Of a stretch of 64,000 nucleotides of DNA, positions 40,547-64,000 are shown one piece after another. Each line of letters opens with the position of its first letter. Position 1 is the stretch's first letter. Source of the DNA: an uncultured Acidimicrobiales bacterium. Lineage in GTDB: Bacteria; Actinomycetota; Geothermincolia; Fen-727; Anoxymicrobiaceae. Location of the stretch: the NCBI GenBank assembly GCA_964512645.1, contig CAZEJS010000005.1, positions 18,309 through 82,308 of the forward strand, written 5' to 3'. Below the pieces are notes generated by a model. The model saw only the letters and a program-made list of their open reading frames with translations, ran no database searches and had not been told where the DNA came from. Both the position numbers and the translations under genes were made by a program.

Positions 40547-40785
40547 TGGAAGTGGGCATCAAAGTAGGTCTCATTGCAATCGGTGCAGCTCTGGCGATCG
40601 GTCTTTCCGCTATTGCGACTGGGCTCGCTCAGTCGAGGATCGGAGCCGCGATGGCCGGTGCGATCGCAGAGAGGCCGGAGCTGGTGGGTAGCGCGATCAT
40701 CCTCGTCGCTATCCCCGAAACCATGGTCATCCTGGGATTCGTCGTCGCGTTCCTTATCACCGCCCTGAAGAGCACAGTGAAGTAA
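40546..40785 (+). CDS. atpK: A/V-type ATPase subunit K (c), single hairpin
   Basis: Two TM helices; TGLAQSRIG (Gln29) and IPET (Glu58, Thr59). Confidence 0.95.
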   Translation: MEVGIKVGLIAIGAALAIGLSAIATGLAQSRIGAAMAGAIAERPELVGSAIILVAIPETMVILGFVVAFLITALKSTVK

Positions 40786-40808
40786 GCTGACCAAGGGAGT
40801 GAAAAGGA

Positions 40809-41402: not shown

Positions 41403-41427
41403 ACCGACAACTCTGCGGGGTAACACA

Positions 41428-42510: not shown

Positions 42511-42528
42511 AGCGATCGGACGTATGAC

Positions 42529-42861
42529 ATGTACAAGGTAATCGTGCTGACCGACCCGGAGACCGCGGACGGGTTCAGGCTGGCGGGGGTGGACGTCTTC
42601 CAGGTGGAGACGGCCGACGAGGCCACCCGGGAGATATCAAGGCTCCTCGAGGACCCGAAAAGCGGGATCCTGGCGGTCAACGAGTCGTTCCTGACCGGGC
42701 TGGACGAAAGGATACAGAAGCGCATCGAGGCGACATACCGACCGATAGTGGTGTCGCTCCCTGTCAAGGAGAAGCTGGGCGCGGCCGGTGAGCGGAGGGC
42801 GTTCCTCGCCCGCCTGGTGCACCGCGCGGTGGGCTTCGATGTGACGCTGAAGAACCAATAG
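42529..42861 (+). CDS. atpF: A/V-type ATPase subunit F
   Basis: [16 protein letters not shown] and RAVGFD. Confidence 0.93.
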
Positions 42862-42893
42862 GCCGAAAGGCCGAGAGCTTAAGGAGTCGTGTC

Positions 42894-44648: not shown

Positions 44649-44685
44649 GATCAAGTAGAGTTCACTCTGGACAGGAGAGAGGAAA

Positions 44686-46209
<1,524 letters not shown>

Positions 46210-46218
46210 GGAAAACCG

Positions 46219-46872
46219 ATGGCTGAAAAAGTCAACCCGACGCGCAGCGAGCTCCTCTACAGGAGGCAGCAGATAAGGCTGGCGGAGCAGGGCATGGAGC
46301 TCCTCAAGAAGAAGCGGGACGCGCTGCTCAGGGAGTTCCTCCCGATCATCGACGAGACCATGAAGCTGTCGATGAGGCTCGAGAGGGCCACCGCGGACGC
46401 CCAGCAATCGCTGGCCCTCGCCAAGGCGGTGGAGGGCAAGTCGGTCGTCAAATCGGTCTCGTTCGCCACCAAGGGCGAGATCCTGGTGGACATCTTCGGG
46501 ACCCACGTGATGGGTGTTCCCATTCCCGTCATCAAGAAGTCCGACACCGCGCTCAAGAACGAGCTGAGCCGGGGCTACTCCATAACCGGCGTGAGCGCCC
46601 GGATCGACTCCACGGCAGGCAAGTTCGAGGAGATCATCGATATCATGATCCAGAGCGCCGACATCGAGACGCGGCTGCGCCGGTTGGGGGAGGAGCTCCA
46701 GAAGACCAACAGGCGCGTGAACGCCCTGGAGAACGTGGTCGTCCCCGAGCTCCAGGTACAGGTCAAGTTCATCTTCAGCTCCCTCGACGAGAGGGCCCGC
46801 GAGGACCACTTCCGCCTCAAGAAGGTCAAGAAGAAGATAATGGAGCGGCAGCAGGCCGCCACCCGGTCCTGA
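46219..46872 (+). CDS. atpD: A/V-type ATPase subunit D
   Basis: [16 protein letters not shown] and [10 protein letters not shown]. Confidence 0.96.
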
Positions 46873-46985: not shown

Positions 46986-48248
46986 ATGGACAAGCTGGTC
47001 ATCGAGGGCGGCGGCGAAGCGCTGCGCGGCACGGTGCGCGTGGGCGGCGCCAAGAACTCGGTGCTGAAGCTGATGGCCGCGGTGGTGATGGCCGAAGGGC
47101 CGTCGCTCATCACCAACGTCCCCGACATCTCCGACGTGCACATCATGTCCGAGGTGCTCCGCCGGCTGGGGCTCGGTGTGGAGATGGAGCGGGGAACGCT
47201 CAGGATAACCCCGGCGGCCGAGCCGCGCTTCGAGACACCTTACCACCTGGTACAGAAGATGCGCGCGGCCGTCGACGTGCTGGGGGCGCTGCTGGCCCGC
47301 TACGGGCGGGCCAGGGTCGCGATGCCGGGGGGCGACAACATTGGCTCGCGCCAGATAGACATGCACTTGAAAGGGTTCGCCCAGATGGGCGCGGACCTCA
47401 CGGTCTCCCACGGCTACATCGAAGCACGTGCCCCGGGGCTCAAAGGAACCCACCTCTTCCTCGACTTCGCGAGCGTGGGCGCCACGGAGAACCTCCTGAT
47501 CGCCGCCTGCCTGGCACGGGGACGCACGGTAATCGAGAACGCGGCGAAGGAACCGGAGATAGTCGACCTCGCGGACTTCCTGAGCCGCATGGGAGCCCGC
47601 GTGGAAGGCGCGGGTACCTCGACCCTGACAATCGAGGGCGTGAGCTCGCTGTCCGGCGTGGAGCACGAGGTGATAGGGGACAGGATTGAGGCGGGCACTT
47701 TCCTCCTTGCCGGGGTGGTGACCGGCGGGGAGGTGAGGGTCGAAGGGGCCGACCCCGCGCACCTCGAGATCGTGCGCGAGAAGATGGTCGAGGCGGGATG
47801 CGAGGTTGCGGTGGACGGATCGGCTTTGACGGCCAGGCTGGACGGAAGGGCCCGCGGCGTGGAGATATCCACCCTGCCCTACCCGGGCTTTCCCACCGAC
47901 CTGCAGCCGATGATGCTGGCGTTGCTTGCGACGGCGGACGGCATCTCGTTCGTAACCGAGAACATTTTCGACAACAGGTTCATGGTGGTGGACGAGTTCA
48001 ACAGGCTCGGCGCGGACATGAAGACCAGGGAGCACCACGCGATAGTCAGGGGAGTGGAACGCCTGTCGGGCGCCCCCGTGACCGCCACGGACGTGCGGGC
48101 GGGCGCCGGCCTGGTCCTTGCGGGGCTGGCCGCGGAAGGAGTCACCGAGGTGTACGAGATCCGGCATATCGACCGCGGTTACGAGGATTTCGTGGGCAAG
48201 CTCTCGAGGCTGGGGGCCCGGATCGAGCGGCGACCGGCGGACGGCTGA
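46986..48248 (+). CDS. murA: UDP-N-acetylglucosamine 1-carboxyvinyltransferase
   Basis: [43 protein letters not shown] and IDRGY. Confidence 0.97.
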
Positions 48249-48261
48249 GGCGGGTGACGGG

Positions 48262-50577
48262 ATGAGATGCGAGGCGGGCGCACGGTGCCGCCGGGCGCTC
48301 CTGGCGCGGGCGGCGGCCGTCCTGGCCCTGCTGGTCCTGGCGGGGGCGTTCACCTGTCCCTTCGCCCGCTCGGCGGACCTGCGGGGGAAGGTCGTCATCC
48401 TGGTCATCGACAGGACCGGGCCCGGGGACATCACGCCGGGCGGCACGCCGTTCCTCGCCAGGCTTGCCAACAGGTGGTCGTCGGGGATCATGGTGACCCG
48501 CACCGGGGAGAGGGACACCGGGCGGGAGCCGGACAACGGCGCCGGTTGCGTGACCCTGGCGGCGGGAACGCGTGCCAGGGGCGCGGCGGGCGCGGAGCTG
48601 TCGTTCGAACGGGGTGAACTGCTCGCCGGGGCCGGCCACGAGACATCCGCCGGTTCTTACGCGCGCCTGGCCTCAGGGACCGCGACGCCGCCCGGCGGGT
48701 CGGCATGCCTCGGCATGGCCGCCGTTGTCGCCGGCAACGCGGAGGGTGGCACGTCGGACAGCGTGGGCCTCCTCGGCAGGGAGCTCGCGCGGGCCGGAAA
48801 GGTCGCCGCCGTGGCCGGCAACCAGGATTCTCTGACGGGGCCGGTCCGGTGCTCCGCGCTCATCGTCTCCGGTCCCGGTGGGAAGGTGCCGCAGGCTCGC
48901 CTTGCGGGATTGACCAGGCGCGCGCCGCCGCGGCCGGGAGGAATGGTCACTGATATGGAAGGGCTCCTCGCGGCCTCCCGGGAGCTACTGTCCCGCAGCG
49001 ACCTGCTGGTTATCGACACCGGGGATACCGGGCGGGCCGATCGCGAGCGTCTGCTCACAGGCGCCGGCGCGTTCGCGACGGCGCGGGCGGGTGCCCTGCG
49101 CCGGGCAGACTCTTTCGCCTCGCGCCTGGCGCGGGAGATGGACCTCGGCAGTTCGCTCTTGCTGGTGGTCTCTCCCGCGGCCCCGAGCGAGGCGCGCATG
49201 AAGGGGAACTTCGCGACGCCTTTTATAGCCGCGGGCAAAGGCTTCTCCCGGGGCCTCATTTCATCTCCTTCCACGAGGAGGGCGGGTTTCGTCAACAACA
49301 CCGACCTGGCGGCGACGGTGCTTCGCTTCTACGGCCTCCCGGCCCCCCCGCAGCCCGTGGGGGCCGCGATGAACACGGCGGGGAAGGCTCCAGGCGGGGC
49401 GACAAACCTGGAGCACACCGCTGAGCTCGACAGGCAGTACATGGTTACCAGGGAGGCGCGCTGGCCGGTGGTGCTCGCCTACCTCGCGTGCGTCGGCGTG
49501 TTCCTGGTCCTTTCGCTGGCCTGCATACCGTCGGTGGGCGCCCGGATCGGGATAGAGCGCCGCCTGCCCGTCCTGATGCGCGTTCTCCGGCCTGCCGCGG
49601 TGGTGCTCCTGGCCGCTCCCGCGTCTTTCCTTCTGGTGTCGGCGTTCTCCTTCGATGGCTGGACGTTTCCCCTCGTCTTTTGTGCCGCCTACGCCCTGGC
49701 CGTCGGCCTCGCCGCGTACTTCGCCGCCGGGCCCGCGGGCCGGCCGGACGCTGTGACGCTGGTGTGTCTCCTCTCCGCCGGGGTCATGATGGTCGACCTG
49801 CTCTTCGGCGGCAGGCTCCTGGTGTTCCCGCTGCTGGGGAGCAGCGTCCAGGACGGCATGAGGTTCTTCGGGATCAGCAACGCCGTCTCGGGAATGCTGA
49901 TAGCTTACGGCGTGTTCGGAGCGGTCGGCATCGCGCGCGACTCAGTCTGCGCCGGGGGCCCCGCGAGACGGGGCGTCTTCGCCGGCCTCGCGGTCCTGGC
50001 TTTCTTCGTCGGCTTTGGACTGCTGGGTGGTGATTTCGGGGGTTTTGTCACCACCGTGGTCACGTGCCTGGTCCTCTTCTTCGCGACAGGTGGCGGGCGA
50101 TTCGATCGCCGGAGGATGTTGGTCGTGGTCGGCGGCGCCATCGGGGCGGCGGCCGCCCTGGTGGTGGCCGACGCCGTCTTCGTGCACACCCATACCAGCC
50201 AGGCCCTGTCGGCCGGCTCGCAACAGGTGTTCGGCCTGGTCGGCAGGAAGGCCGTCATACTGCTGGCCCAGATCAGGAGCGTGCTGGTCCTGGCCCTGGT
50301 GATGGTCGCGTCGGTAGTCGCCATTGTCCTGTGGATGAGACGGCCCGGCTCGTTCTGGGAGGCGCGCTGGAGATCCGACAGGGCGTTCACCAGCTCGCTT
50401 TTCGCTCTGCTCTCCGGGAGCATTGTCGCCCTGCTGCTGAACGACACCGGGATCGGGATGATGGGCACCATGGTCATGGTGGCGATCCCGGTCACCGGGT
50501 TTCACTTCATGATGGAGGCTCCGGGCGGCGCCCCGGGGGCCCGGCGTAACGGGTGCGGATTCAGGTCTGCCGGCTGA
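48262..50577 (+). CDS. Hypothetical membrane protein: alkaline-phosphatase-like extracytoplasmic region followed by about 11 TM helices
   Basis: Signal-like N-terminus, then VVILVIDR, LLLVVSP, TPFIAAG and STRRAGFVNNTDLAATVL, then a polytopic C-terminal half. Start placed at ATG 48262. Confidence 0.65.
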   Translation: MRCEAGARCRRALLARAAAVLALLVLAGAFTCPFARSADLRGKVVILVIDRTGPGDITPGGTPFLARLANRWSSGIMVTRTGERDTGREPDNGAGCVTLAAGTRARGAAGAELSFERGELLAGAGHETSAGSYARLASGTATPPGGSACLGMAAVVAGNAEGGTSDSVGLLGRELARAGKVAAVAGNQDSLTGPVRCSALIVSGPGGKVPQARLAGLTRRAPPRPGGMVTDMEGLLAASRELLSRSDLLVIDTGDTGRADRERLLTGAGAFATARAGALRRADSFASRLAREMDLGSSLLLVVSPAAPSEARMKGNFATPFIAAGKGFSRGLISSPSTRRAGFVNNTDLAATVLRFYGLPAPPQPVGAAMNTAGKAPGGATNLEHTAELDRQYMVTREARWPVVLAYLACVGVFLVLSLACIPSVGARIGIERRLPVLMRVLRPAAVVLLAAPASFLLVSAFSFDGWTFPLVFCAAYALAVGLAAYFAAGPAGRPDAVTLVCLLSAGVMMVDLLFGGRLLVFPLLGSSVQDGMRFFGISNAVSGMLIAYGVFGAVGIARDSVCAGGPARRGVFAGLAVLAFFVGFGLLGGDFGGFVTTVVTCLVLFFATGGGRFDRRRMLVVVGGAIGAAAALVVADAVFVHTHTSQALSAGSQQVFGLVGRKAVILLAQIRSVLVLALVMVASVVAIVLWMRRPGSFWEARWRSDRAFTSSLFALLSGSIVALLLNDTGIGMMGTMVMVAIPVTGFHFMMEAPGGAPGARRNGCGFRSAG

Positions 50578-51550
50578 ACTGCCAAATGGCTATGACGAGC
50601 ATGACCAGGGCGAAGCACGATACCACCGTGATGTCCAGCCACAGCGGGTACCTCTGGGTCTGCAGGGACATGCTCGAGCCGGCCCTGGTGAGGGCCGCTT
50701 TAACTTCGGCGGGCATCCGGTTCAGGGCCTGCTGGGGGATCTTGTTCAGCAGGGCCGCAGGTCCCCCGGTCACCTCGACGCCCCTCAGGCTGATCCCCCT
50801 CAGCATGTCTACCCCGTAGGACAGCGGGTTGAGCTTGGTGAGCACGTTCATCCAGCCGGGCAGTCCCTGCAGCGGGAACATCGCCCCGGAGAGGAAGAAG
50901 AGCGGCAGCAGCAGGAAGTTCATCACCATCGGGAACCCCTCCATCGATTTCATATTGGCCGCTATGGCGACGCCCATCGCGGTCATCCCGATGGCCAGCA
51001 GCAGGGTCAGGGGTATCAGGGCCAGTGCCTTGAGAGCGGTCTCGACGCTGAATCCGTACATGAACGGGAAGAACATCAGGGCCAGGAGTATGGTCCCCTG
51101 GATCATCGCCTGGGTGGCACCGCCGATTATCTTGCCGAAGGCGACGCTCGAACGCGGCACCGGGGAGACCAGTACCTCTTTGAGAAAGCCGAACTCCCGG
51201 TCCCAGAGGATCGAAATGGCGGAGAAGACCGAGGTGAAGAGCACGGTCATCCCCAGGATCCCCGGGAACATGAAAAGGATGTACCTGGTGTTTCCGCCGC
51301 CGAACACCTTGAAGGCGGCCTGGAGACCGGTCCCCAGGAGGAACAGGTAGATCATCGGCTGGACGAAGGCGCCCACCCGCCTGGGGGTGTCGCGCCAGAA
51401 CCGCTTGATATCGCGGAGCCACACGATGTAAGCCCCCGTGAAGGCCCTCCGGACGTTCGTCCTGCGGAGATACTCCTCGGTGGACTCGCCCGGCCCTTTT
51501 TCCGCCCGGTCGCCCCCCGTGCCGGTGTTGGTGCGCTCCCTGTCGTCCAT
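50561..51550 (-). CDS. ABC-2 type transporter permease (DrrB/NodJ-like)
   Basis: WLRDIKRF, MFPGILGM, WDREFGFLKE, FFLSGAMFP and NPLSYGVD. Confidence 0.92.
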   Translation of the reverse strand: MDDRERTNTGTGGDRAEKGPGESTEEYLRRTNVRRAFTGAYIVWLRDIKRFWRDTPRRVGAFVQPMIYLFLLGTGLQAAFKVFGGGNTRYILFMFPGILGMTVLFTSVFSAISILWDREFGFLKEVLVSPVPRSSVAFGKIIGGATQAMIQGTILLALMFFPFMYGFSVETALKALALIPLTLLLAIGMTAMGVAIAANMKSMEGFPMVMNFLLLPLFFLSGAMFPLQGLPGWMNVLTKLNPLSYGVDMLRGISLRGVEVTGGPAALLNKIPQQALNRMPAEVKAALTRAGSSMSLQTQRYPLWLDITVVSCFALVMLVIAIWQFSRQT

Positions 51551-51555
51551 TCCGG

Positions 51556-52542
<987 letters not shown>

Positions 52543-52862: not shown

Positions 52863-54068
52863 CTAGGGCCGCACCACTTCGTCCAGGACCCCCTCCAGGA
52901 TCTCCACGCCTTTCTGCCACGAGAAGTTCTCCTCCATCAGCCGCCTCGCGTTGCCGGCGAGTTCGTCCCTCGCCGCGGCGTCACCGAGCAGTCTCGCCGT
53001 TTCGCGCGCCATCACGGCCGGGTCGTCCGCCAGGATTATGTTCAGGCCGTTCTCCGCCGGAAGCCCTTCGGCGCCCAGCCTGGTGGATACCACCGGGACT
53101 CCGGCGGCCATCGCCTCCAGGACCTTGCCCCTGAAGCCCCCGCCCATACGCACCGGGCAGACAAAGACGTCCGCCTGGAGCATGTAGGGCATGACCGATT
53201 CGACTTCGCCGGTGATCTCGATCGAGGGGTCGAGCCGGGCAAGCTCCAGCATGTCCGGCGTGGGTCCCCTGCCGACGACGAGGAACCTGGCGTCCGGCAC
53301 ATTCTCCTTCACCATGGGCCAGGAGCTGTGGACGAAGTGCACGGCCGCGTCCCTGTTCGGGTCGTGGGGGAAGTTACCCAGGAACATGACGGTGGGCGGA
53401 TGAGGCGGCCTGTCCGCGGCGGGCCGGAAGCCCTCGACGTCGACGCCGTGAGGGACCACCGCGATGTCGAGGTCGTCCCTGATGGCCAGGAGTTCGTCCC
53501 TTCCCTCCGGGGTGAGGGTCAGGACCTTGTCTGCGTCCGCGTACATGTCGAACTCGAAACGCTTCAAGCCTTTGAGCTGCATCAACGCCTGGAGCCCGGC
53601 TTTTCCCCACCCCTGGACCGACAGCACCTTCCTGCGGGCCAGGTAGTAGCATTCGTGCACCGACATGACCCGTTTCATCCCTGCCAGGTCGCCGTTGCGG
53701 TACAGGTACTGGGCCACCATCGAGTATTCGGATATGGCTACGTCGTATCGGCAAGACCTCGTCATCTCGCCCAGCTCCCGGTACATCTCGGGGGAGTAGT
53801 TGAGCATGAAATACGGAGGAACCGGACCGGCTACCCAGTCTTTCGCGCGTCGCACGGCGCCTCTGGCGGCGGGAGGCGGTACGAGCCTGAGCTCTTTGCA
53901 ATACCGGCCGAGAGACTCGACCTGCTCGGTCGTGGGCTTGTGAGGGGCGAATGCGATACAGGAAACCGTGTGGTCGCGCGAGAGGTACTTGATACGGTTG
54001 TAGATGATTATCGGCCCCCCGATCACGCGGCTGTGGGGGAACTCCTTGACAACGAAGAGGATGTTCAT
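52863..54068 (-). CDS. Glycosyltransferase family 4
   Basis: VPHGVD, FLGNFPHDPN, GFRGKVLEAMAAGVPVVST (EX7E-type region). Confidence 0.9.
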   Translation of the reverse strand: MNILFVVKEFPHSRVIGGPIIIYNRIKYLSRDHTVSCIAFAPHKPTTEQVESLGRYCKELRLVPPPAARGAVRRAKDWVAGPVPPYFMLNYSPEMYRELGEMTRSCRYDVAISEYSMVAQYLYRNGDLAGMKRVMSVHECYYLARRKVLSVQGWGKAGLQALMQLKGLKRFEFDMYADADKVLTLTPEGRDELLAIRDDLDIAVVPHGVDVEGFRPAADRPPHPPTVMFLGNFPHDPNRDAAVHFVHSSWPMVKENVPDARFLVVGRGPTPDMLELARLDPSIEITGEVESVMPYMLQADVFVCPVRMGGGFRGKVLEAMAAGVPVVSTRLGAEGLPAENGLNIILADDPAVMARETARLLGDAAARDELAGNARRLMEENFSWQKGVEILEGVLDEVVRP

Positions 54069-54243: not shown

Positions 54244-57200
54244 ATGGATGTAACACGTGCCAGGATAGCGGCCATCGCGGGGTTGGTTCTGTTCGCGGCG
54301 GCGGTCTTGCTGCTCCTGTCGGCGGCAGGCGCGGCGGCGGGAGCCGGCCAGCCCGTGGTGGAGCTCCAGCAGAACGCCACCAACGACGTCACGTGGCCGA
54401 GTGTTTTCACTTCCACGAGGATCGCGGGCACCGACGGGGCAAACAAGAAGGAGTACAAGTTCCAGCGCCAGCGTGAGGGGAAGTATTTCTCCTACGCGGT
54501 GGGCAACCTGCCGGCGTCGACGAGCTACTCGGTGGAACTGAGCTTCGTCGAGCACGACTACTCCGCGGCGGGCAAGCGCGTTTTCAACGTCTACGTCCAG
54601 GGCGGCAAGGTGCTCTCCAGGCTCGACGTCTGCGCCGCCGCCGGTGGCAGGAACAGGGCGCTGCAGAGGACCTTCCAGGCGAAAACGAGCGCTTCCGGGG
54701 TCCTCACCGTAACCTTCAGGTCGGACCAGGCCGGCTGCAAGGACTACGCCACCGTCAGCACGGTGCGGCTGTACAGGGGTGGCTCCAGCGCGGTGGAGAT
54801 AGACGCGTTCGCCAGCCGCCTGAACATGACCACCCCGACCAGGTTCGTCAACTCGTCCGGCCAGGACACTTTCGAGGCGATCCTGGGGCGCATGGGCGCC
54901 CGCGCGAGCCTCGACCTGATGCCCCAGAAGCGCGCCGCCAGGTTCGCCCCCCTTGGTGACGGCACGGGGGACGTGCACGACCTGGTCATGGCGCTGTCGG
55001 ACGGGGTGGACATCCGCGCCCTGCCTTTCACCGACAGGTTCCCGGTATGGGAGAACCTCACTCAGAAGCAGACCATGACCACGCAGACGTTCGAGGGGTC
55101 TTCGCCCCGGATCCCCTTCAAGGCGACGGTCAGGTTCAAAGCGCCTTTCTACCCGGGTCACGACAAGGCCAGCGGCGCGCCGTTCTTCTACATCGACGTG
55201 ACGGTGCGGAACACCGGTTCGGCGGCCGCCTCGCCCACCTTCGTTATCGCCCGTTCGCACAAGCTCGACTTCGCCTCCAGCGAAGTCGCCGAGTACTCCG
55301 AGCCCACCGAGGCGGGAATCGCGAACTCCACGACCTGCAACTACTACGACGAGACGCGCAACCCCTTCAAGGCGAAGAAGGCCACCGAGTCGCTGGCCGT
55401 GGCGGCCGGCGAATCGTCGGACGTCGACTTCAGGGGCTCGACGCCCCTGGAGTTCTCCGACTTCACCGGCGACAGCATCTGGTCGTACGTCTCCCCGGCC
55501 GGGTACCCGGCTACCTACGACGACTACAAGAGGCCGGTCTACAGTTACTACCCCAGGGGGTACACCGGGGCGGTGTGGACGATAGACGGCCTTGCCCCCG
55601 GGGATTCCCGTACCAAGCGGTTCGTGCTGGCCGGTTACGTTTCCGACCGGGTGTTGAGCGTGTCTAACACCGCCTACAGCGATTCCACCTTCCGCTTCCG
55701 CTACACCAGGCAGTTCGCGGATGTGCGCAAGGTGGTGAATTACGCGATCACCTCGCGTTCCGCGGGGGACGGGATCGAGACCCTGTCCGATTTCTTCGAC
55801 GCCACGGTGAACTCGGATGCCTATCTTGCCCTGCCTTCCGCTTACCGGGACCAGGTCCGCGATCTTATGAGCTACGGGTTTCAGAGCTTCCTGGCGAACA
55901 CCTGGTGGGCGCGATCGGACTCCGGCAGAGACTGGTTCAGCGTGTGGGAGGGCTCGAGCTGCCGCTACCACTCCACTGTGGACGTGGAGTACAACCAGGC
56001 GTGGTTCTACCTGTACTTCTGGCCGGACCTCCTGAAACAGGTGATGACGGAGTGGACCTTCTACACCAACGCGAGCCCGCAGGGTACTTACATCTCGCAC
56101 GACATGGGCGTCGGCGACACCGCGGCAGGGCAGTCGTATCCGCTCAGCATGGCCGTGGAGGAGAACGCCAACTTCATACTGCTCCTGTACAAGTACTGGA
56201 AGACCACGGGTGACCTGGCCTTCATGCAGCAGCAATTCCCGCTGGTGCGCGAGCTGCTCGACTTCAACATCAACTGCGACACCAACGGGAACGGGCTGCC
56301 GGACCTCCACGCCCAGAACACCATCGACCAGGGGTCGTACGGCATCCAGAAATCGAGAGACCAGGTGTACCTGGGGGTCAAGTGCCTGGCCTCGTGCCAG
56401 GCCGCCCGCGAGATGGCGTTGAACCAGTCGCGGGCGGACCTTTCCTCCGCCTCGAAGTGCCGCGGGCAGGTCGAGCTCATCAACCAGACGCTGGAGTACG
56501 ACATGTGGCTCTCGGACCACTTCGCGGTCTGCTCGGACCAGGACGCGAAGCAGGAGGACGCCGAGGCGTACAGCATCTACGCGGCGAACGGGTTGCTCTA
56601 CCTGCTGGGGGGTACCAGGACCGTCGGGGTGACCGGCACCAACCACGAGCGCTTCCGCCTGGACGCGTCGAACGCGGTGGAGAAGACGCTGAAGACTTAC
56701 GGCTGCCCGCACTCGTCTTACGACCAGTACAACCAGTGGGTGTCGCAGAACCTCTGGAGGGACCAGGCGGCGTGCTACCTGGGGGCACAGCTCCGCGGGG
56801 CAAACCCCCTGTCGCTTTCGACCCGGTACTGGAGCCTTCAGAAGTACTTCGGGAAGAACCTGTACGGCACGTTCTGGGACGTGCTGGTTTACCCCGGGGG
56901 CGCCGGTGTCCGGAACGCCTCCACGGGATTGACCCCTTACGTCGCTCCCGTGGGCGCCGGAGCGGGAAAACGGGCCGCCGGAGCCTTCCTCGAGGCATCC
57001 TCGGGCTACTCGCAGAGCCTCGGTTACTACCCGAGGGGCGCTTCGGCACTGGGGCTCATCGACGCGGTGGCCGGCCTGACGCTGGACGGCGCCGCCGATT
57101 CGCTCTACTACCAGCAGACGGCTTATCCCCTGCGCGTGCCGGTGTTCGCCAGGGCCGACTGGGGCAACGCCGACCCCGCGGCGAGGGTGCCTACGTTGTA

Positions 57201-58836
57201 CTTTTCGACCGCCCGTTCGGCCCCGACTGCCACCAACCGGGCGCTGTTGCCGGCCAGGGTCGCGGGGCGCTCGGTGAAGGACATCACCGGCGTGAGGGCG
57301 GGAACCCACGCCGTAAGCCCGAACGGCGACGGGGTCAACGACACCGTCAGGGTCGATTACACCCTCCCGGTGGCCGCGAAGGTAACGGTTTCGGTGTGGT
57401 CCGGTTCCCGCCTGGTGCGCTCCTGGCCGGAGGCGGTCTGCCCGGCCGGCTCCAGGAGCTTCACCTGGGACGGGCGAGACACCCGGGGCGTGGCCGTCGG
57501 CGACGGCACCTACACGGCGAAGATAGACGCCAGGGCGACCAGCGCCGCGCACGAGCTGCGGCCGGCCTCGGTGCCCGTCTACGTGAATTCCTCGATACCC
57601 GACCTGTCCAGGACCTGGTACCTGGCTGAAGGGTTCACCGGCAGGAACGCCACCGGGGGCGAGTTCGAGGAGTACGTCCTGATACAGAACCCCAACCCCC
57701 GGGCGGCGTCCCTGGGCGTGCGATTCATGCTGCCGGGGGGGGCGACGCTCGACAGGGCGTACACCGTAGCGCCAAACAGCCGCTTCACCATCACCGTTGA
57801 CGACATCCTCCCCGACGCGGAGGTGAGCACTTTTGTCAGCTCCGACGTACCGGTGGGAGTCGAGAGGTCGATGTACTTCAACGGAAGGCGGGCGGGGCAC
57901 GACTCCATCGGTGTGTCCCGGCCGTCGAAGACCTGGTACCTGGCCGAAGGATACACCGCGGAAAGCTTCGACGAGTACGTCCTGATACAGAACCCCGGTG
58001 ACACCGACGCATCCGTCAAGGCCACCTTCATGACACCGGGTGCGGGGAACGTCGAGAGGCGGTACGTTGTCGGCGCCCACTCGCGGTTCACCATCCACGT
58101 GGACGAGATAATACCCGCCCAGTCGATTTCCACGCTGATCCAGAGCAGCGCCGACGTGGTCGTGGAGAGGGCGCAGTACCTGAACAACATGACCGCGGGG
58201 ACGTGCTCGATAGGCGCCTGCTCGCCTTCGAACGCCTGGTACCTGGCCGAGGGTTACACCGACCAGGGGTTCGAGGAGTGGGTACTGATACAGAACCCCC
58301 AGAGCACCTACAACGACGTGACGGTCACGTTCATGGAGAGCACCGGGAAGAACACGGTGAAGCGGTTCACCCTGCCGCCGGCGTGCAGGTTCACCATACA
58401 GGTGGACGGCTACCTGCCCGCGAGCGAGGTCTCGGTGAAGGTGCGCTCGGAGCACCCGGTGCTGGTGGAGAGGGCGATGTACTGGAACGACCGCAGCGAC
58501 GGGCACGCCTGCATCGGGACACCCACGCCGGACACCACCTGGTACCTGCCGGAGGGTTACACCGACCAGGGGTTCGAGACCTGGGTGCTGATACAGAACC
58601 CGGGCGACGACGCCAGGAATGTCGAGGTGACCTTCATGCAGGCGGACGGGACCAACACTACCCGGAGCTACAGGGTCCCCCCGCGAAGCAGGTTCACGGT
58701 CTCCATGGACGAATCGCTGCCCGCGACGGAGGCCAGCACCAGGGTTGTCGCCGACGGTCCGGTCATCGTGGAACGCGCGGTGTACTTCAACAACCGCAGC
58801 GGGGGCACCGATTCCATAGGAGTGCGCGGGTTCTAG
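54244..58836 (+). CDS. Large secreted protein: malectin, DUF4965/glutaminase-A-like six-hairpin domain, FlgD-type Ig domain, four WxxAEG repeats
   Basis: Signal peptide; malectin-like YSVELSFVE..AGKRVFNV; STVDV, HDMG and MAVEENANFILL motifs; SPNGDG..FTWDGRD..GDGTY; repeats starting at 57616, 57934, 58237 and 58540. Confidence 0.75.
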   Translation: MDVTRARIAAIAGLVLFAAAVLLLLSAAGAAAGAGQPVVELQQNATNDVTWPSVFTSTRIAGTDGANKKEYKFQRQREGKYFSYAVGNLPASTSYSVELSFVEHDYSAAGKRVFNVYVQGGKVLSRLDVCAAAGGRNRALQRTFQAKTSASGVLTVTFRSDQAGCKDYATVSTVRLYRGGSSAVEIDAFASRLNMTTPTRFVNSSGQDTFEAILGRMGARASLDLMPQKRAARFAPLGDGTGDVHDLVMALSDGVDIRALPFTDRFPVWENLTQKQTMTTQTFEGSSPRIPFKATVRFKAPFYPGHDKASGAPFFYIDVTVRNTGSAAASPTFVIARSHKLDFASSEVAEYSEPTEAGIANSTTCNYYDETRNPFKAKKATESLAVAAGESSDVDFRGSTPLEFSDFTGDSIWSYVSPAGYPATYDDYKRPVYSYYPRGYTGAVWTIDGLAPGDSRTKRFVLAGYVSDRVLSVSNTAYSDSTFRFRYTRQFADVRKVVNYAITSRSAGDGIETLSDFFDATVNSDAYLALPSAYRDQVRDLMSYGFQSFLANTWWARSDSGRDWFSVWEGSSCRYHSTVDVEYNQAWFYLYFWPDLLKQVMTEWTFYTNASPQGTYISHDMGVGDTAAGQSYPLSMAVEENANFILLLYKYWKTTGDLAFMQQQFPLVRELLDFNINCDTNGNGLPDLHAQNTIDQGSYGIQKSRDQVYLGVKCLASCQAAREMALNQSRADLSSASKCRGQVELINQTLEYDMWLSDHFAVCSDQDAKQEDAEAYSIYAANGLLYLLGGTRTVGVTGTNHERFRLDASNAVEKTLKTYGCPHSSYDQYNQWVSQNLWRDQAACYLGAQLRGANPLSLSTRYWSLQKYFGKNLYGTFWDVLVYPGGAGVRNASTGLTPYVAPVGAGAGKRAAGAFLEASSGYSQSLGYYPRGASALGLIDAVAGLTLDGAADSLYYQQTAYPLRVPVFARADWGNADPAARVPTLYFSTARSAPTATNRALLPARVAGRSVKDITGVRAGTHAVSPNGDGVNDTVRVDYTLPVAAKVTVSVWSGSRLVRSWPEAVCPAGSRSFTWDGRDTRGVAVGDGTYTAKIDARATSAAHELRPASVPVYVNSSIPDLSRTWYLAEGFTGRNATGGEFEEYVLIQNPNPRAASLGVRFMLPGGATLDRAYTVAPNSRFTITVDDILPDAEVSTFVSSDVPVGVERSMYFNGRRAGHDSIGVSRPSKTWYLAEGYTAESFDEYVLIQNPGDTDASVKATFMTPGAGNVERRYVVGAHSRFTIHVDEIIPAQSISTLIQSSADVVVERAQYLNNMTAGTCSIGACSPSNAWYLAEGYTDQGFEEWVLIQNPQSTYNDVTVTFMESTGKNTVKRFTLPPACRFTIQVDGYLPASEVSVKVRSEHPVLVERAMYWNDRSDGHACIGTPTPDTTWYLPEGYTDQGFETWVLIQNPGDDARNVEVTFMQADGTNTTRSYRVPPRSRFTVSMDESLPATEASTRVVADGPVIVERAVYFNNRSGGTDSIGVRGF
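57616..58833 (+). repeat. Four-unit WxxAEG repeat module, unpermuted register
   Basis: Units of 303-318 bp with consensus WYLAEGYT..F..YVLIQNP..SRFT..VERxMYF..GHDSIG. Confidence 0.92.
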
Positions 58837-58902
58837 CGACGGCGGCGCCATCCCGGCGGAGGCCGGGTGGAGGACGCCGGGCACCGACCAGAGAAATACA
58901 AG

Positions 58903-58983
58903 TGTGATACAATTCTGAGGCCAACCGAATACAGATCCTTTTGCCAGGGAGCCGGAGATTACTCCGGTCGTGCCTGGTTTTTT
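58903..58983 (+). promoter_or_regulatory. TRTGn extended -10 element followed by a long hairpin and U6 in the amidase leader
   Basis: TGTG-A-TACAAT (58903-58913); CCAGG/CCTGG outer stem and CCGGAG/CTCCGG inner stem (58944-58977); then TTTTTT. Confidence 0.55.
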
Positions 58984-59001
58984 GTTGGGAGCGCATGCGG
59001 G

Positions 59002-60909
59002 ATGAAAAAGGCGGGTTCCGGGATAGTAGCCGCGGTGATAATGGCGCTGCTGGCCGCGCCGGGCGGGCCGGCGGGCCTCGCGCGCGCCGACGCGCCGCCG
59101 GGCTCGGGCCTGGTCCTGGTCTGCCTGGACCCCGGTCACGGCGGCAACGACTCCGGGGCCAATTACAACGGCGTACAGGAGAAGCTGGTCAACCTGGATA
59201 TCGCCCTACGGGCGAAGCCGATCATCGAGGGTATGGGGTACAGGGTGTTGATGACGCGCACCGACGACTCCACCCTGTCGCTGCAGGAGCGCTGTGACAT
59301 CGCCAACAGGGCCAACGCCACGATCTTCGTTTCGATACACAACAACGCCTACCTGACGGACTCCGAAGGCACGGAGACGTTCTGCTACTACAACTCCGAG
59401 GAAGGAAGACGCCTGGCGACCGCGGTGCACCGGCAGGTGGTAAGGCGGATCAAGCTCCCGGACCGGGGCGTGAAGGAGGCCGGCTTCTACGTCCTCAAGC
59501 ACACCGACATGACCTCCGCGCTGGTGGAGGGCGCTTTCCTCACCAACCCGGCCGAGGCCCTGCTCCTCCAGGACCCCAGGTTCAGGCAGAAGATCGCCGA
59601 GGGGGTGGCGGCGGGGATAAACGACTTCCTGATGGACCCCGGACGGTTCGACGAGTACATACTGGTGATGAACCCCGACCCCGCCCGTGTTGCCGAGGTC
59701 GAGTTCACCTACATGAACGCCAGCGGCCGCGAGTCCTCCAGGCGGCTCGAGGTCCCGCCCCTGTCCAGGGCCACCGTCCACGTCGACGAGGACGAACCGA
59801 ACACCGATCTCTCCACCCTGGTGACCAGCGTGAACGGGGTGCCCGTCGTCGCCGAACGGGCGATGTACTTCGGCTTCGAGCGTGGCATTGGCGGACACGA
59901 TTCGCCGGGGGTGACGGAGCCTTCCACCCGCTGGTACATGGCGGAGGGTTCGACGGATTGGGGCTTCAGCACCTACCTGCTCATCCAGAACCCTCTGGAG
60001 GTGGAGAACCCCGTGGCGGTCCGCTTCATGCGTTCGGACGGCGAGACCGTCGACTACCGGTGCACCATGGCGCCCCATACCCGGTTCACCCTGGACTGCT
60101 CGACGGTCCCCGGCGTGGAGAAGGCGGACTTCTCGATCAGGGTTACCGCGGAGTCCCCGGTGGTGGCCGAGCGGGCCATGTACTTCAAGGACCGCGAGGG
60201 GCGTTCCGGGGGCCACGACTCCCTGGGGGTGACGGCGCCCTCGAAGCGATGGCTGCTGGCCGAAGGCTACACCGGCAGGGGCTTCGACACGTACCTCCTG
60301 CTTCAGAACCCATCGAGCTCGACGGCTTCCGCGCGGGTGCGCTACATGCTTCCGGGGGGGAAGGTCGTAAGCGCCACCGAGGAGATCGCGCCTCACAGCC
60401 GCAAGACGGTGCATGTGGACGAGGTCCCCGGCCTCGAGTCGACCGACGTGTCCATCGAGGTCGTCTCGACGGTCGGGGTGATCGCCGAACGCTCTATGTA
60501 TTTCGACTACTTCGGGATCAGGGAAGGAAACAACGCCCCCGGCGCCAATTCCCCTTCCCGGATCTGGTACCTGGCGGAGGGATGCACGCGCGTCGGCTTC
60601 GACACGTACATCCTGCTCCAGAACCCCTCGGGAAAGGACACCGGGGCGATCCTGGAGTTCCTGCTGGCCGACGGCACTGTGAAGAAGATGGGCGTTCACC
60701 TCGAGGCCCGCTCGCGCCGTACGGTCAAGGTGAACGAGGTCGGCGGCATGGGAGCGGCCGAATTCTCCACCAGGGTTACGTGCGGCGAGCCGATAGTGGT
60801 GGAAAGGGCTTCGTACTTCAACTACGGGCCCAAGCCGGGCGGGACCAACGACATGGGCGTCACCGGCCCGGCCCTGCAGTGGTACTTCGCCGAGGGGTGC
60901 ACGAGGTAG
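59002..60909 (+). CDS. Secreted N-acetylmuramoyl-L-alanine amidase (Amidase_3) with four WxxAEG repeats
   Basis: Signal peptide; zinc and catalytic motifs DPGHGG, EK, SIHNNA and LVEGAF; start placed at ATG 59002. Confidence 0.92.
   Translation: MKKAGSGIVAAVIMALLAAPGGPAGLARADAPPGSGLVLVCLDPGHGGNDSGANYNGVQEKLVNLDIALRAKPIIEGMGYRVLMTRTDDSTLSLQERCDIANRANATIFVSIHNNAYLTDSEGTETFCYYNSEEGRRLATAVHRQVVRRIKLPDRGVKEAGFYVLKHTDMTSALVEGAFLTNPAEALLLQDPRFRQKIAEGVAAGINDFLMDPGRFDEYILVMNPDPARVAEVEFTYMNASGRESSRRLEVPPLSRATVHVDEDEPNTDLSTLVTSVNGVPVVAERAMYFGFERGIGGHDSPGVTEPSTRWYMAEGSTDWGFSTYLLIQNPLEVENPVAVRFMRSDGETVDYRCTMAPHTRFTLDCSTVPGVEKADFSIRVTAESPVVAERAMYFKDREGRSGGHDSLGVTAPSKRWLLAEGYTGRGFDTYLLLQNPSSSTASARVRYMLPGGKVVSATEEIAPHSRKTVHVDEVPGLESTDVSIEVVSTVGVIAERSMYFDYFGIREGNNAPGANSPSRIWYLAEGCTRVGFDTYILLQNPSGKDTGAILEFLLADGTVKKMGVHLEARSRRTVKVNEVGGMGAAEFSTRVTCGEPIVVERASYFNYGPKPGGTNDMGVTGPALQWYFAEGCTR
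59647..60906 (+). repeat. Four-unit WxxAEG repeat module, permuted register
   Basis: Begins at FDEYILVMNP; W motifs at 59932, 60250, 60565 and a terminal WYFAEGCTR at 60880. Confidence 0.9.
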
Positions 60910-60912
60910 CCG

Positions 60913-63282
60913 ATGGGAGTTGGAGCACGACCGGCAGGAGCGTTGAGAGCCCTCCTCGCCGTCGCGGTTGCGGCGGCGCTGTATGCCGCCGCCCTCGCGC
61001 CCTCGCCGCCCGGCGCCGCCGCGCAGACGTTCCCGGACACGGCCGGCTGCCCGGCGGAGATACAACAGGCCATCGAAGCCGTGACCGCCAGGGGCTACAT
61101 GAACGGCGGGCCGGACGGGAACTTCCACCCTTACGACCCGGTGACCCGGATTGATTACGCCTGCGCCCTGGTTAAGCTGTTCGGCAGGGCACAGGAGGCC
61201 CCCGACCCGGCGATACGTTTCAGCGACATGCCGGCCACCGACCCGCTGTTCAGGTTCGCCAACGTCGCCGTCGGACACGGGTACATGAGCGCCTATCCCG
61301 ACGGCGCCTTCAGAAAGAGCGAGCCCCAGACGTGCGCCGCGGCGATGGCGGGCCTGGTGTCGGGCCTGGGGCTGGGCGATCCGGCCGCATACGCCAGGGT
61401 CCTCTGGCCCGCCGGACCGGCTTACCAGGGCTCCTCCATCGTCTCCAGCGACCTGAGGCTCAAGTACCGCGACACGCGCGCCCGGCCGTCGGAGGGATAT
61501 CCGCGCGGGGAGATGGCTTACAGCCTGCAGAGGGCGGCGCGGCCGGACTCCTGGAGGGTCGAATACGTCCGGCAGACGTTCCAGTGGCTCAACTGCCAGC
61601 GTCCGCTCGTAGGAAACGCGCGCGAGCGGGCGCTGGACGCCGCGTTCTCCAAGATCGGTTACCCCTACGTCTGGGGCGGGGAGTCGGACGCCGAGGGCGG
61701 CTACGACTGCTCGGGGCTGACCTACTACGTGCTGAACACGGTCCTGGGGCGCCCGATGATGAGAGTGGCCGACGACCAGGCCAGGGACGGCCGCTACCCG
61801 TCCGTCGCGATGTCGGACCTGCTCCCGGGAGACCCGGTCCTCTTCTACAAGGACCCGGGCGTTTCCGACTACGTGGGACACGCCGGGCTGTACGTCGGCA
61901 GGGGCCTTTTCATCCATTCGACCGGGGGCAACGCCGGCGTGAGCGTCGACAGCCTCTCGGGGTATTACGGGGAGCACTTCTGCTGCGGGAAGCGCGTTAT
62001 AGCCGAGCCCGAGCCGGAGTCTTTCGACACCTACATACTGCTGGCGAACCCCGGCGACGCGCCGGCCAGGGGGGCTTTGACCTACATGCTCCGGGACGGC
62101 AGGCGCATACAGCAGGAGGTCTCGCTCGACGCGCGCAGCCGCAAGACCGTGAAGGTCGACGACACCCTGGTCAACGAGGAGTTCTCCACCAGGGTGGACG
62201 CGCTCCAGGGTCCGCTGGTGGCGGAGCGCTCGATGTACTTCCGTTACCGCGACGCCATTCCCGGGGGGCACGTCAGCGCCGGAACGACAGAGCCGTCCAC
62301 CGAATGGTTTCTCGCCGAAGGCTGCACGGCGTGGGGCTTCGATACGTTCATTCTCGTGCAGAACCCCAACCCGGAACCGGCCCGGGTCACACTCACTTTT
62401 CTCGAGGCCGGTGGCGCGACCCGGGAAGTGACGTTCGAGGTGGCCGGGCTGGCCAGGTACACGGTACCCGTGGACGCCGTCGAGGGCATGGAGCAGGTCG
62501 AATTCTCCACCGTGGTGAAGGCCTCCATACCGGTAGTGGTCGAGCGTTCGATGTACTTCGATTACGGCGGCATCAAAGAGGGTTCCTGCGCGGCGGGCGT
62601 CACCGGCCTCTCCGACGAATGGTTCTTCGCTGAAGGTTACACCGCAGGCGACTTCGACACTTACATACTGCTGGCCAACCCGGGCGGGCGGACCGCGCAC
62701 GCGACCCTGTCGCTCGAGTCCGAAAAGGGAAAGCGGTCCGACGTTTACGTGGAGGTGAAACCCCGCTCAAGGAGGACTGTAGCCGTCGACGGGATCAAGG
62801 GATGGGAGGCGAAGGCCTTTTCCGCCAGGGTCAGGGCGGACGCGCCGATCGCCGCCGAGAGGGCGATGTACTTCCGGTACAATCGCATAGCCGGCGGCCA
62901 CGCTTCGTTCGGCTCCCCGGTGCTGTCCGACAGGTGGTTCCTGGCCGAGGGGTACACCGCCGAGTCGTTCGACACCTACGTTCTGGTCTTCAACCCGAAC
63001 AGGAGGGCGGCCCGGCTCTCGGTCCGGTTCCTGCTGAAGGGAGGACGATTCCTGGACAGGGCCTGCACCGTCGGCCCGGAGTCGCGTTACACTATCGCGG
63101 TGGACAAGGTGAAGGGGCTGGAGGCCGAGGAGGTCTCCGTCTCGATAACCAGCGACCTGCCGGTGGTGGCGGAGAGGTCTGTGTACTTCGATTACCGGGG
63201 CAGGACGGGAGGCTCCTGCGAGCGCGGCGCGACCGGGCCCGCAGGCCGCTGGTATTTCGCCGAGGGGTACACCGGAAGATAA
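60913..63282 (+). CDS. Secreted SLH-domain NlpC/P60 peptidase with four WxxAEG repeats
   Basis: Signal peptide; SLH-like FPDT..GYMNGGPDGNFHPYDPVTR and FSDM..GYMSAYPDGAF; NlpC/P60 triad DCSGL, HAGLY and FIHS. Confidence 0.9.
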   Translation: MGVGARPAGALRALLAVAVAAALYAAALAPSPPGAAAQTFPDTAGCPAEIQQAIEAVTARGYMNGGPDGNFHPYDPVTRIDYACALVKLFGRAQEAPDPAIRFSDMPATDPLFRFANVAVGHGYMSAYPDGAFRKSEPQTCAAAMAGLVSGLGLGDPAAYARVLWPAGPAYQGSSIVSSDLRLKYRDTRARPSEGYPRGEMAYSLQRAARPDSWRVEYVRQTFQWLNCQRPLVGNARERALDAAFSKIGYPYVWGGESDAEGGYDCSGLTYYVLNTVLGRPMMRVADDQARDGRYPSVAMSDLLPGDPVLFYKDPGVSDYVGHAGLYVGRGLFIHSTGGNAGVSVDSLSGYYGEHFCCGKRVIAEPEPESFDTYILLANPGDAPARGALTYMLRDGRRIQQEVSLDARSRKTVKVDDTLVNEEFSTRVDALQGPLVAERSMYFRYRDAIPGGHVSAGTTEPSTEWFLAEGCTAWGFDTFILVQNPNPEPARVTLTFLEAGGATREVTFEVAGLARYTVPVDAVEGMEQVEFSTVVKASIPVVVERSMYFDYGGIKEGSCAAGVTGLSDEWFFAEGYTAGDFDTYILLANPGGRTAHATLSLESEKGKRSDVYVEVKPRSRRTVAVDGIKGWEAKAFSARVRADAPIAAERAMYFRYNRIAGGHASFGSPVLSDRWFLAEGYTAESFDTYVLVFNPNRRAARLSVRFLLKGGRFLDRACTVGPESRYTIAVDKVKGLEAEEVSVSITSDLPVVAERSVYFDYRGRTGGSCERGATGPAGRWYFAEGYTGR
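62023..63279 (+). repeat. Four-unit WxxAEG repeat module, permuted register
   Basis: Begins at FDTYILLANP; W motifs at 62305, 62620, 62935 and a terminal WYFAEGYTGR at 63250, spaced exactly 315 bp. Confidence 0.9.
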
Positions 63283-63332
63283 CAATATCAACGATAAAAT
63301 ACACTAATAGTCAAAACCAACAGAGAGGGACG

Positions 63333-64000
63333 ATGGCTTCCAACTTGAAGAACTCCGGTTCGCGTGACAGGTCTCTGGGACGCAAGCGGCGCCGCTTCTC
63401 GGCAGCGGCCCGTGTGCTCGTGGCGGTGGCCCTTTGCGCCGCGCCGGCGCTGGTCCGGGCGGCGCCTCCGTCGGGCGGCGCCGCAACCGTTTTTCATTTC
63501 CAGGGATACGGGCGCGCCCACGGCGTGGGCATGTGCATGGACGGGGTGTACTACCGCGCCATGGAAGGCCAGGACTACCGCACCATACTCACCTACTACT
63601 ACACCGGGGTCAATTTCTCGACCACCGACGATAACCGCCCGATAAGGGTGAAGGGCCGGGACGGCCAGGTCCGGGTCCTTTCCATGCGCGACTACCTTTA
63701 TCGCCTGCAGGAGGAACCGGACAGCTACCCCCTGGAGGAGCTGAAGGCGCTGTACGTCGCCGCCCGGACCTATACCCTTTCGTGCATAGCCCGCAACAAG
63801 CATACGGCGCAGGGCTTCGACATCTGCTCCAGCGGCGAGTGCTGCCAGGCCTTCGACGAGAACAAGAACGTGGCCGCCTACCCCAACTGCAACGCGGCCG
63901 TCGACGCCACAGCCGGGCAGATACTCACCTACAACGGGCAGCCGATCACCGCGGCTTACTGCGGGTCCTGCGGGGGGCACACCGAGAACAACGAGGACGT
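63333..64000 (+). CDS. SpoIID/LytB-domain protein (partial, runs off the window)
   Basis: Open frame translated by hand, absent from the ORF track: GYGRAHGVGMC, ILTYYYTG, EELKALYVAARTY, FDICSSGECCQ, AVDATAGQILTY and CGGHTEN. Confidence 0.88.
   Translation, partial: MASNLKNSGSRDRSLGRKRRRFSAAARVLVAVALCAAPALVRAAPPSGGAATVFHFQGYGRAHGVGMCMDGVYYRAMEGQDYRTILTYYYTGVNFSTTDDNRPIRVKGRDGQVRVLSMRDYLYRLQEEPDSYPLEELKALYVAARTYTLSCIARNKHTAQGFDICSSGECCQAFDENKNVAAYPNCNAAVDATAGQILTYNGQPITAAYCGSCGGHTENNED

Follow-up and report, generated by a model that had tools for sequence, protein, structure and literature searches.

The ASRAH domain goes back to a 2009 paper by De Souza, Iyer and Aravind (PMC2739507), who described three families: intracellular stand-alone proteins that form tetramers, secreted Chloroflexi amidases (from Roseiflexus, Chloroflexus and Herpetosiphon) that carry tetrads of the domain, and an actinobacterial lipoprotein that carries a dyad. 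Sugar binding was proposed for ASRAH domains and peptidoglycan binding for the amidase family, and the dyads and tetrads were proposed to reproduce the TM1070 homotetramer (PMC2739507). Work on the related ASRT has dealt with it as a rhodopsin partner and as a DNA-looping protein (PMC2739507, PMC8660804). We analysed a stretch of 64,000 nucleotides (the window) from an uncultured Acidimicrobiales bacterium placed by GTDB in the Anoxymicrobiaceae (contig CAZEJS010000005.1, positions 18,309 to 82,308). In it three consecutive secreted proteins, here called P1, P2 and P3, each end in four tandem units of 98-106 amino acids (aa). A fourth protein of this kind, P4, is cut by the window end and a fifth, P5, was found past that end on a public contig that carries the same locus. 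The four units very probably make up an ASRAH tetrad that folds as one pseudo-tetrameric body, each unit being the 'ASRAH' domain of the 2009 paper.

Because that paper described both the module and its likely role, the two had been published before, in the form of a computational prediction. The tetrad is a real and tidy feature and not a new kind of system, its kind having been described since 2009. What is added here concerns the lineage, the wide range of the partner domains, the strict quantisation of the unit number at four or eight, and complementary circular permutations that point to ring closure. Beyond the 2009 paper we found no later paper using the term ASRAH, and our literature search found no paper on the Pfam family DUF5719 (PF18986), which the units match. 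The searchable papers contained no test of the 2009 sugar-binding prediction, and the titles and abstracts of papers on Geothermincolia, the class of the host, held nothing on the tetrad.

Unit boundaries were set from the positions of the WxxAEG and ERxMYF motifs. A hidden Markov model (HMM) was built from the 12 units of P1-P3 and searched against the six-frame translation of the window; it recovered every unit at E-values of 1e-34 to 5e-41 and found no further unit there, the next best match having an E-value of 0.68. Open reading frames (ORFs), motifs and HMM together bore out what had been claimed from the sequence in an earlier note (the original prediction), namely three consecutive secreted proteins on the forward strand with four units each. 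The repeat consensus given there, built around WxxAEG and ERxMYF, also held, as judged from the positions invariant in the 12 units (F12, N20, P21, R51, E78, R79 and Y82 in profile numbering). Over 1028 units from relatives R51, E78 and Y82 were conserved at 100%, N20 at 99% and P21 at 96%, with R79 among the positions conserved at 98-100%. W1 was present in 84% of these units; it was missing mainly where strand 1 is absent, and in some first units it was replaced by Y or F. At the cleft-side positions of strand 2 the residues were acidic in 86%, aromatic in 99% and L or C in 93% of the units, and such an acidic and aromatic face is typical of sugar sites.

The units of the window were about 40% identical to one another regardless of protein or position, and on this ground positional orthology of units 1-4 was rejected. 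No DNA-level repeat was found among the units, which are therefore old and diverged, and a recent DNA duplication as their origin was likewise discarded. Among the retrieved relatives (P0001-P0268) the units within one protein were 46-52% identical, as against 38-41% between proteins. In the genome of the window such an excess was seen only in P1 (50% vs about 40%). The similarity within proteins could be due to concerted evolution or to shared lineage.

An AlphaFold2 model of the P3 tetrad (window 61972-63282), built with 47 homologues, had a mean predicted local distance difference test score (pLDDT) of 94.3 and a predicted template modelling score (pTM) of 0.91, by which the relative placement of the four domains is predicted with confidence. 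DSSP assigned about eight strands per unit in the models. In Foldseek searches of PDB, single units matched TM1070 (1nc7) with a template modelling score (TM) of 0.82, a root-mean-square deviation of 1.8 A and a probability of 1.0, and ASRT (2ii7, 2ii8 and 2ii9) with a TM of about 0.8. The best PDB sequence match of the 12-unit profile was again 1nc7 (E 0.006); a PDB search with a single sequence gave no match. In the profile alignment FDTYxLxQN fell on the TM1070 cleft strand SHESLCIMN, with the conserved W and N in register. Pfam ASRT was matched by 16 of 100 representative relatives, with E-values down to 1e-20, and by none of P1-P3 at E 0.01. The units have the eight-stranded beta-sandwich, the strand-1 tryptophan, the asparagine at the end of strand 2 with an ungapped tight turn after it, and the detectable sequence relationship by which the ASRAH/ASRT superfamily is recognised. 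With ASRT (2II7-2II9) and TM1070 (1NC7) they share the fold (TM 0.76-0.82), four domains per body and the strand-2 cleft. Unlike the tetrads, ASRT and TM1070 are intracellular and consist of four separate chains, and their cleft signature is SHEshChhN (with H25 and C29), whereas that of the units is F-D/E-T-Y/W-x-L-x-Q-N.

The best viral structural match of the P3 tetrad model (BFVD) was FirrV-1-C4 of Feldmannia irregularis virus a (Q6XLX4, 525 aa), with an E-value of 1e-16, a probability of 1.0 and a TM of 0.50 over 471 columns; the similarity spans much of the multi-domain body and extends beyond a single unit. A fungal fucose lectin resembles TM1070 in structure (PMC9191617), but too weakly for the likeness to be used.

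Pfam DUF5719 was matched by P1-P3 with 51.1, 58.6 and 55.7 bits, against a gathering threshold of 26.2, and by P4 and P5 with 34.4 and 60.7 bits. The DUF5719 label suggested in the original prediction was thus correct. The prediction had also taken such repeats to be labelled only as a domain of unknown function; the module is not undescribed, being the ASRAH tetrad already reported on secreted amidases (PMC2739507). The units align to two domain-like regions of the DUF5719 profile (positions 48-133 and 173-243), and no NCBIfam model covers the tetrad. DUF5719 appears to correspond to family 3 of the 2009 paper, the actinobacterial two-domain lipoprotein; the paper predates the Pfam family and does not name it. 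Both DUF5719 and the tetrad proteins are extracellular and actinobacterial. In the family 3 lipoprotein a dyad is extended at both the N- and the C-terminus and there is a lipobox cysteine, whereas the proteins here have tetrads without extensions, and the signal peptides of P1-P3 have no cysteine. A tight linkage with WhiB, with a glycosyltransferase and with an inactive zincin has also been described for the lipoprotein (PMC2739507); neither WhiB nor a zincin was found in Pfam scans of the window ORFs.

The registers of the arrays bear on how the four domains are put together. Adjacent units abut without a linker. In P1 the array opens with the WYLAEG strand and ends after unit four, whereas the arrays of P2 and P3 are one strand out of register: WxxAEG is missing from their unit 1, and the extreme C-terminus carries a spare WYFAEG. 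In the P3 model unit 1 had seven strands by DSSP, and the spare C-terminal strand was modelled as a paired beta strand with a pLDDT of 98; it would be the eighth strand of unit 1. The same complementarity held among 268 relatives. A spare terminal strand 1 was found in 0 of about 159 arrays that keep the strand 1 of the first unit and in 104 of 104 complete arrays that lack it, the five leftovers being truncated sequences. In a third register the array runs from profile position 65 to position 59, so that the sum is again four units. One protein of this register, P0240, was modelled; its part-domains at the two ends had a pLDDT of 90-98 and supplied three and five strands, which make up one eight-stranded sandwich. 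Since the end part-domains can fold only if the ends of the array meet, we conclude that the four domains form a ring. The tetrad would then be a closed ring, in effect a single-chain counterpart of the TM1070 tetramer, and its complementary permutations would be a clear case from nature of a ring closed by exchange of a strand. Neither the permutations nor the spare closing strand were described in the 2009 paper (PMC2739507).

The number of units is quantised at four or eight. Four units were found in 119 of the 120 closest homologues, the exception being a truncated fragment on a 1.3-kb contig. Among 148 representatives, 133 had four units and seven had eight, that is two tetrads, while apparent five- and nine-unit arrays were permuted ones. 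At the genomic loci 102 ORFs carried four units and 11 carried fewer, the latter in short loci or loci cut by a contig end. In P0133, a 701-aa fragment cut at both ends, at least seven contiguous units were counted; this sole case without a demonstrated count of four or eight is probably a piece of two back-to-back tetrads. Three of the proteins, P0128, P0134 and P0150, apparently consist of little beyond a signal peptide and two tetrads. In the 133 four-unit representatives the tetrad was C-terminal in 120, N-terminal in seven and internal in six.

Tetrads are abundant. Searches with the tetrad as query returned 1,432 proteins at 90% clustering, and the unit profile matched 7,818 clusters at 50% identity with E <= 1e-3, 3,492 of them with E <= 1e-30. 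At least 520 stretches of GTDB species-representative genomes encode a tetrad. The named sources were all Candidatus Geothermincolia (Solincola, Geothermincola, Geohydrothermomicrobium and Anoxymicrobiaceae) or doubtfully labelled or other metagenome-assembled genomes (MAGs) of Actinomycetota. The closest genomic matches were 68-73% identical, and within the best 80 stretches several MAGs contributed three or four separate loci each. Three adjacent tetrad genes around the P3 orthologue recurred in 11 other MAGs; from their position we take the flanking two to be the amidase and the SpoIID gene. Phage lysins that carry the module would have been independent evidence of wall binding, but the module had no match in 50,697 phage records or 72,556 plasmids. 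A single match was obtained in IMG/VR (L082:3851-5881, on the 193-kb UViG_3300027896_000010). Its identity as a lysin was rejected, as it is a secreted tetrad protein of 676 aa, with a signal peptide, an N-terminal tetrad, a proline run and then, by eye, seemingly two similar C-terminal domains of about 100 aa. The source organism looks low-GC by protein composition, and the contig may be host DNA rather than viral.

Partner domains were counted among the 120 close homologues. SpoIID was the most frequent (46), followed by L,D-transpeptidase (28), CAP (23) and Amidase_3 (10); NlpC/P60 (3), GH18 (2), M23 (1) and M28 (1) were rarer, and six proteins had no recognised partner. More distant relatives carried subtilases, TIG and FG-GAP arrays, GDSL lipases, beta-helix proteins, 5'-nucleotidase, metallophosphoesterases and alpha-2-macroglobulin-like domains. 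Of 235 proteins starting with M, 183 were signal-peptide-like at the N-terminus under a strict test, and many of the failures were truncated gene calls. Among the nearest described proteins are the family 2 amidases. Like these, the proteins here are secreted and have four tandem domains of the ASRT fold with the conserved strand-1 W and the N at the end of strand 2, and P2, with its Amidase_3 domain, has the identical architecture. The family 2 domains are, however, 'always fused to an amidase' (PMC2739507), whereas here at least 30 partner families were seen, and P1, P3, P4, P5 and most relatives have other partners than an amidase. The host also differs, being a member of the Actinomycetota, class Candidatus Geothermincolia.

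Our preferred reading, to which we give a probability of roughly 0.6, is that the tetrad is a multivalent, non-catalytic anchor for cell-wall glycan that would work like SLH or CWB2 modules. Each protein would be exported by its ordinary N-terminal signal peptide. Its four ASRAH beta-sandwiches of eight strands, joined without linkers, are predicted to pack into a compact, closed body of pseudo-four-fold symmetry, which in P2, P3, P4 and P5 would be closed in the manner of velcro when the last 9-11 residues (WYFAEG...) supply the missing strand of unit 1. Up to four clefts, lined by D/E13, Y/W15, L17 and Q19 of strand 2, could then bind a repeating glycan of the cell wall, either peptidoglycan strands or a wall polysaccharide, in a lectin-like way and without catalysis. 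Such binding would keep the enzyme in the wall. The window would accordingly show an operon-like run of peptidoglycan-remodelling enzymes using the tetrad, which in Candidatus Geothermincolia may serve as a general surface-retention module for many exoproteins.

In SLH and CWB2 modules three tandem repeats make up a single body of pseudo-symmetry, whose ligand is a secondary wall polymer. The tetrad resembles them in its fixed small repeat number, in its pseudo-symmetric body and in being common to many unrelated surface proteins of a lineage. It differs in its unrelated fold and in having four repeats, not three; the ligands of SLH and CWB2 are known, and P3 carries an SLH domain in addition to its tetrad. 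The original prediction had proposed a sorting, anchoring or docking domain, functionally like dockerins, the C-terminal domains of the type IX secretion system (T9SS) or CWB2. The shared, non-catalytic anchoring role of the CWB2 kind is the best reading of the data, and the likeness to dockerins and to T9SS domains was not upheld.

Several points weigh against a glycan anchor. The closed ring and the strand insertion were inferred from pTM, pLDDT, DSSP strands and permutation statistics, not from measured contacts, and glycan binding is deduced from cleft homology and domain context. The cleft of 1NC7 held only ethanediol (PMC2739507), and ASRT was studied as a protein- and DNA-binding factor (PMC8660804). 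No phage endolysin with the module was found in the phage records or IMG/VR. The SLH domain of P3 suggests that the tetrad may not suffice for anchoring or may do another job. The tetrads are also acidic, with isoelectric points of 4.8-5.6 at the locus and, for 257 tetrads, a median of 4.6, while many wall anchors that grip anionic polymers are basic. This acidity disfavours simple electrostatic binding to anionic polymers. We speculate that a neutral or partly de-N-acetylated glycan would be a better match for it, a deacetylase being encoded in the same gene run.

That the tetrads bind each other or a scaffold, and so build a surface lattice or a multi-enzyme complex for peptidoglycan remodelling, we consider unlikely. 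ASRT-family proteins do oligomerise and a protein partner of ASRT has been reported, this locus encodes five tetrad proteins close together, and the three proteins with a signal peptide and two tetrads could be structural. However, the ring proposed here would use up the homotetramer interfaces within one chain, and the residues kept over more than 1000 units include the acidic and aromatic strand-2 face. The locus shows no gene for a cohesin-like partner, and no dockerin or cohesin was matched by Pfam in P1-P5 or their neighbours. A dockerin is a duplicated calcium-binding segment of about 70 aa that pairs with a cohesin scaffoldin, whereas the module here consists of four beta-sandwiches of 100 aa. 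Dozens of unrelated exoproteins carry this tetrad, and single genomes have many loci for it, so that the candidate multi-enzyme system of the original prediction was an overstatement. A role in sorting or secretion in the manner of T9SS C-terminal domains is harder still to maintain, and we regard it as very improbable. It would fit the C-terminal position of most tetrads, but not the N-terminal and internal ones, the signal-peptide-like N-termini of the proteins or a host lineage within the Actinomycetota, as T9SS is a system of Bacteroidota. A T9SS C-terminal domain consists of one beta-sandwich, about 80-100 aa long, that forms the very C-terminus of its protein, whereas the module has four domains and about 420 aa. 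The only Pfam match of this kind, to CHU_C, was below threshold and lay on the FlgD_ig region of P1, outside the units.

The tetrad might instead present substrate to peptidoglycan enzymes or regulate them, like a carbohydrate-binding or an autoinhibitory module, and not be a general anchor. In its favour, peptidoglycan-active domains (SpoIID, YkuD, Amidase_3, NlpC/P60, M23) or GH18 were present in 91 of the 120 closest homologues, and the 2009 paper tied the tetrad to amidases only (PMC2739507). The fusions to subtilases, lipases, nucleotidases, adhesin-like TIG/FG-GAP arrays and the GH116-like glycosidase argue against it, as none of these act on peptidoglycan. Since the partner range is broad, general surface retention fits better than a substrate-specific helper, and we rate the latter as improbable.

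A wider reading can be put forward tentatively. The tetrad may be the main, lineage-wide surface-holding system of Geothermincolia, a closed lectin ring of one chain with four sites, sealed by a swapped terminal strand. Its ligand would be a wall glycan peculiar to the lineage, such as de-N-acetylated peptidoglycan or a polymer with rhamnose that the flanking genes produce. The tetrad would then do the job done elsewhere by SLH, CWB2, LysM or sortase anchoring, and the sugar binding long predicted for the ASRT superfamily could for the first time be put to a tractable test. No general principle would be changed, as the family and its likely role were proposed before. The tetrads are nevertheless a practical route to the ligand of this fold, being abundant, modelled with very high confidence and placed beside enzymes of known substrate. 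The retrieved sequences include no cultured member of Geothermincolia, and much of the surface proteome of this class is marked out by the tetrad. It is thus a handle for the annotation of exoproteins and for cell-labelling probes.

The coordinates of the tetrad genes, their domains and units, and the genes upstream are collected in the table.

Table. Features of the tetrad locus in the window (positions in nucleotides of the window)
Feature	Position	Strand	Remarks
MurA-type gene	46986-48248		Upstream of P1
819-aa protein	48118-50577	+	Between MurA-type gene and ABC-2 exporter
ABC-2 exporter	50561-52542	-	Upstream of P1
GT4 glycosyltransferase	52863-54068	-	Divergent, adjoins P1
P1 gene	54244-58836	+	1530 aa; signal peptide-like N-terminus, C-terminal tetrad
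P1 Malectin domain	54454-54723	+	Pfam
P1 GH116-like six-hairpin glycosidase region	55102-56544	+	Pfam: GH116 N-terminal domain, DUF608, GtaA_6_Hairpin
P1 FlgD_ig domain	57340-57534	+	Pfam
P1 tetrad	57616-58833	+	Canonical register, begins with WYLAEG strand; HMM E 2e-38 to 5e-41
P1 units	57616-57933, 57934-58236, 58237-58539, 58540-58833	+	Motif positions, HMM
P2 mechanical ORF	58867-60909	+	Starts upstream of the called start 59002
P2 gene	59002-60909	+	635 aa from the called start (gene call on matching public contig), begins MKKAGSG; signal peptide, Amidase_3, tetrad
P2 Amidase_3 domain	59119-59622	+	Pfam; NCBIfam CwlD/AmiA-like, below equivalog cut-offs
P2 tetrad	59617-60906	+	Shifted register
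P2 units	59617-59931 (without strand 1), 59932-60249, 60250-60564, 60565-60879	+	
P2 spare strand 1	60880-60906	+	WYFAEGCTR
P3 gene	60913-63282	+	789 aa; signal peptide, SLH, NlpC/P60, tetrad
P3 SLH domain	61027-61161	+	Pfam
P3 NlpC/P60 domain	61657-61983	+	Pfam
P3 tetrad	61990-63279	+	Shifted register
P3 units	61990-62304 (without strand 1), 62305-62619, 62620-62934, 62935-63249	+	
P3 spare strand 1	63250-63279	+	WYFAEGYTGR
P4 gene, SpoIID/LytB type	63333-64000	+	Runs past window end
P4 SpoIID domain	63663-63932	+	Pfam E 1.5e-16

Pfam found all catalytic domains that had been assigned from the sequence: the six-hairpin glycosidase of P1 with GH116 N-terminal and catalytic domains, Amidase_3 in P2, and NlpC/P60 together with SLH in P3. 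The P1 region had originally been called DUF4965-like, and its GtaA_6_Hairpin match (PF16335) is the former DUF4965. The SpoIID type of the fourth, truncated gene was likewise confirmed. By a simple hydrophobicity test the N-termini of P1-P4 have a charged and then a hydrophobic stretch and are signal-peptide-like. In the frames of the tetrad genes the GC content at third codon positions was 0.87-0.90, which is what real genes of a 65% GC genome would show. The signal region of P4 (window 63333-63480) contains GRKRRRFSAAA and looks twin-arginine-like, while those of P1-P3 look Sec-type. A scan for promoters and terminators gave counts no higher than expected by chance.

A public contig (logan:ERR13624444_441, L001) encodes an identical P3 protein, extends 9.3 kb beyond the window end and matches the window exactly at its ends where these were compared. 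The cluster continues on it past the window end (L001:10926-19922). The full P4 has 753 aa, with four units of its own and 11 further C-terminal residues. It is followed by a Polysacc_deac_1 protein (L001:13206-14210), by three nucleotide-sugar genes (an NTP transferase, a dTDP-sugar isomerase and a dehydratase/epimerase), by P5, a 940-aa FG-GAP protein with a fifth tetrad, and by a GT-C-like gene. Five tetrad proteins are thus encoded inside 18 kb. The downstream sugar genes could make the ligand glycan. In Pfam scans of its ORFs the remainder of the window was filled with housekeeping genes, and these, together with the flanking glycan genes, mark the locus as a chromosomal envelope-biogenesis region.

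Some further observations were made on the neighbouring genes. The 819-aa protein had no match in Pfam or NCBIfam; its N-terminal half is apparently extracytoplasmic and its C-terminal half is a polytopic membrane region. The best NCBIfam matches were CwlD for the amidase, SpoIID for the SpoIID protein and PdaB/PdaA for the deacetylase, all below the equivalog cut-offs; these are spore-cortex and engulfment enzymes. The window also encodes a GAF-PAS-SpoIIE (PP2C) phosphatase (113-2812) and a membrane H+-pyrophosphatase (5749-7800), as well as, in an actinobacterial genome, a V/A-type ATPase operon on the forward strand (38537-46872) with subunits I, E, C, A, B and D.

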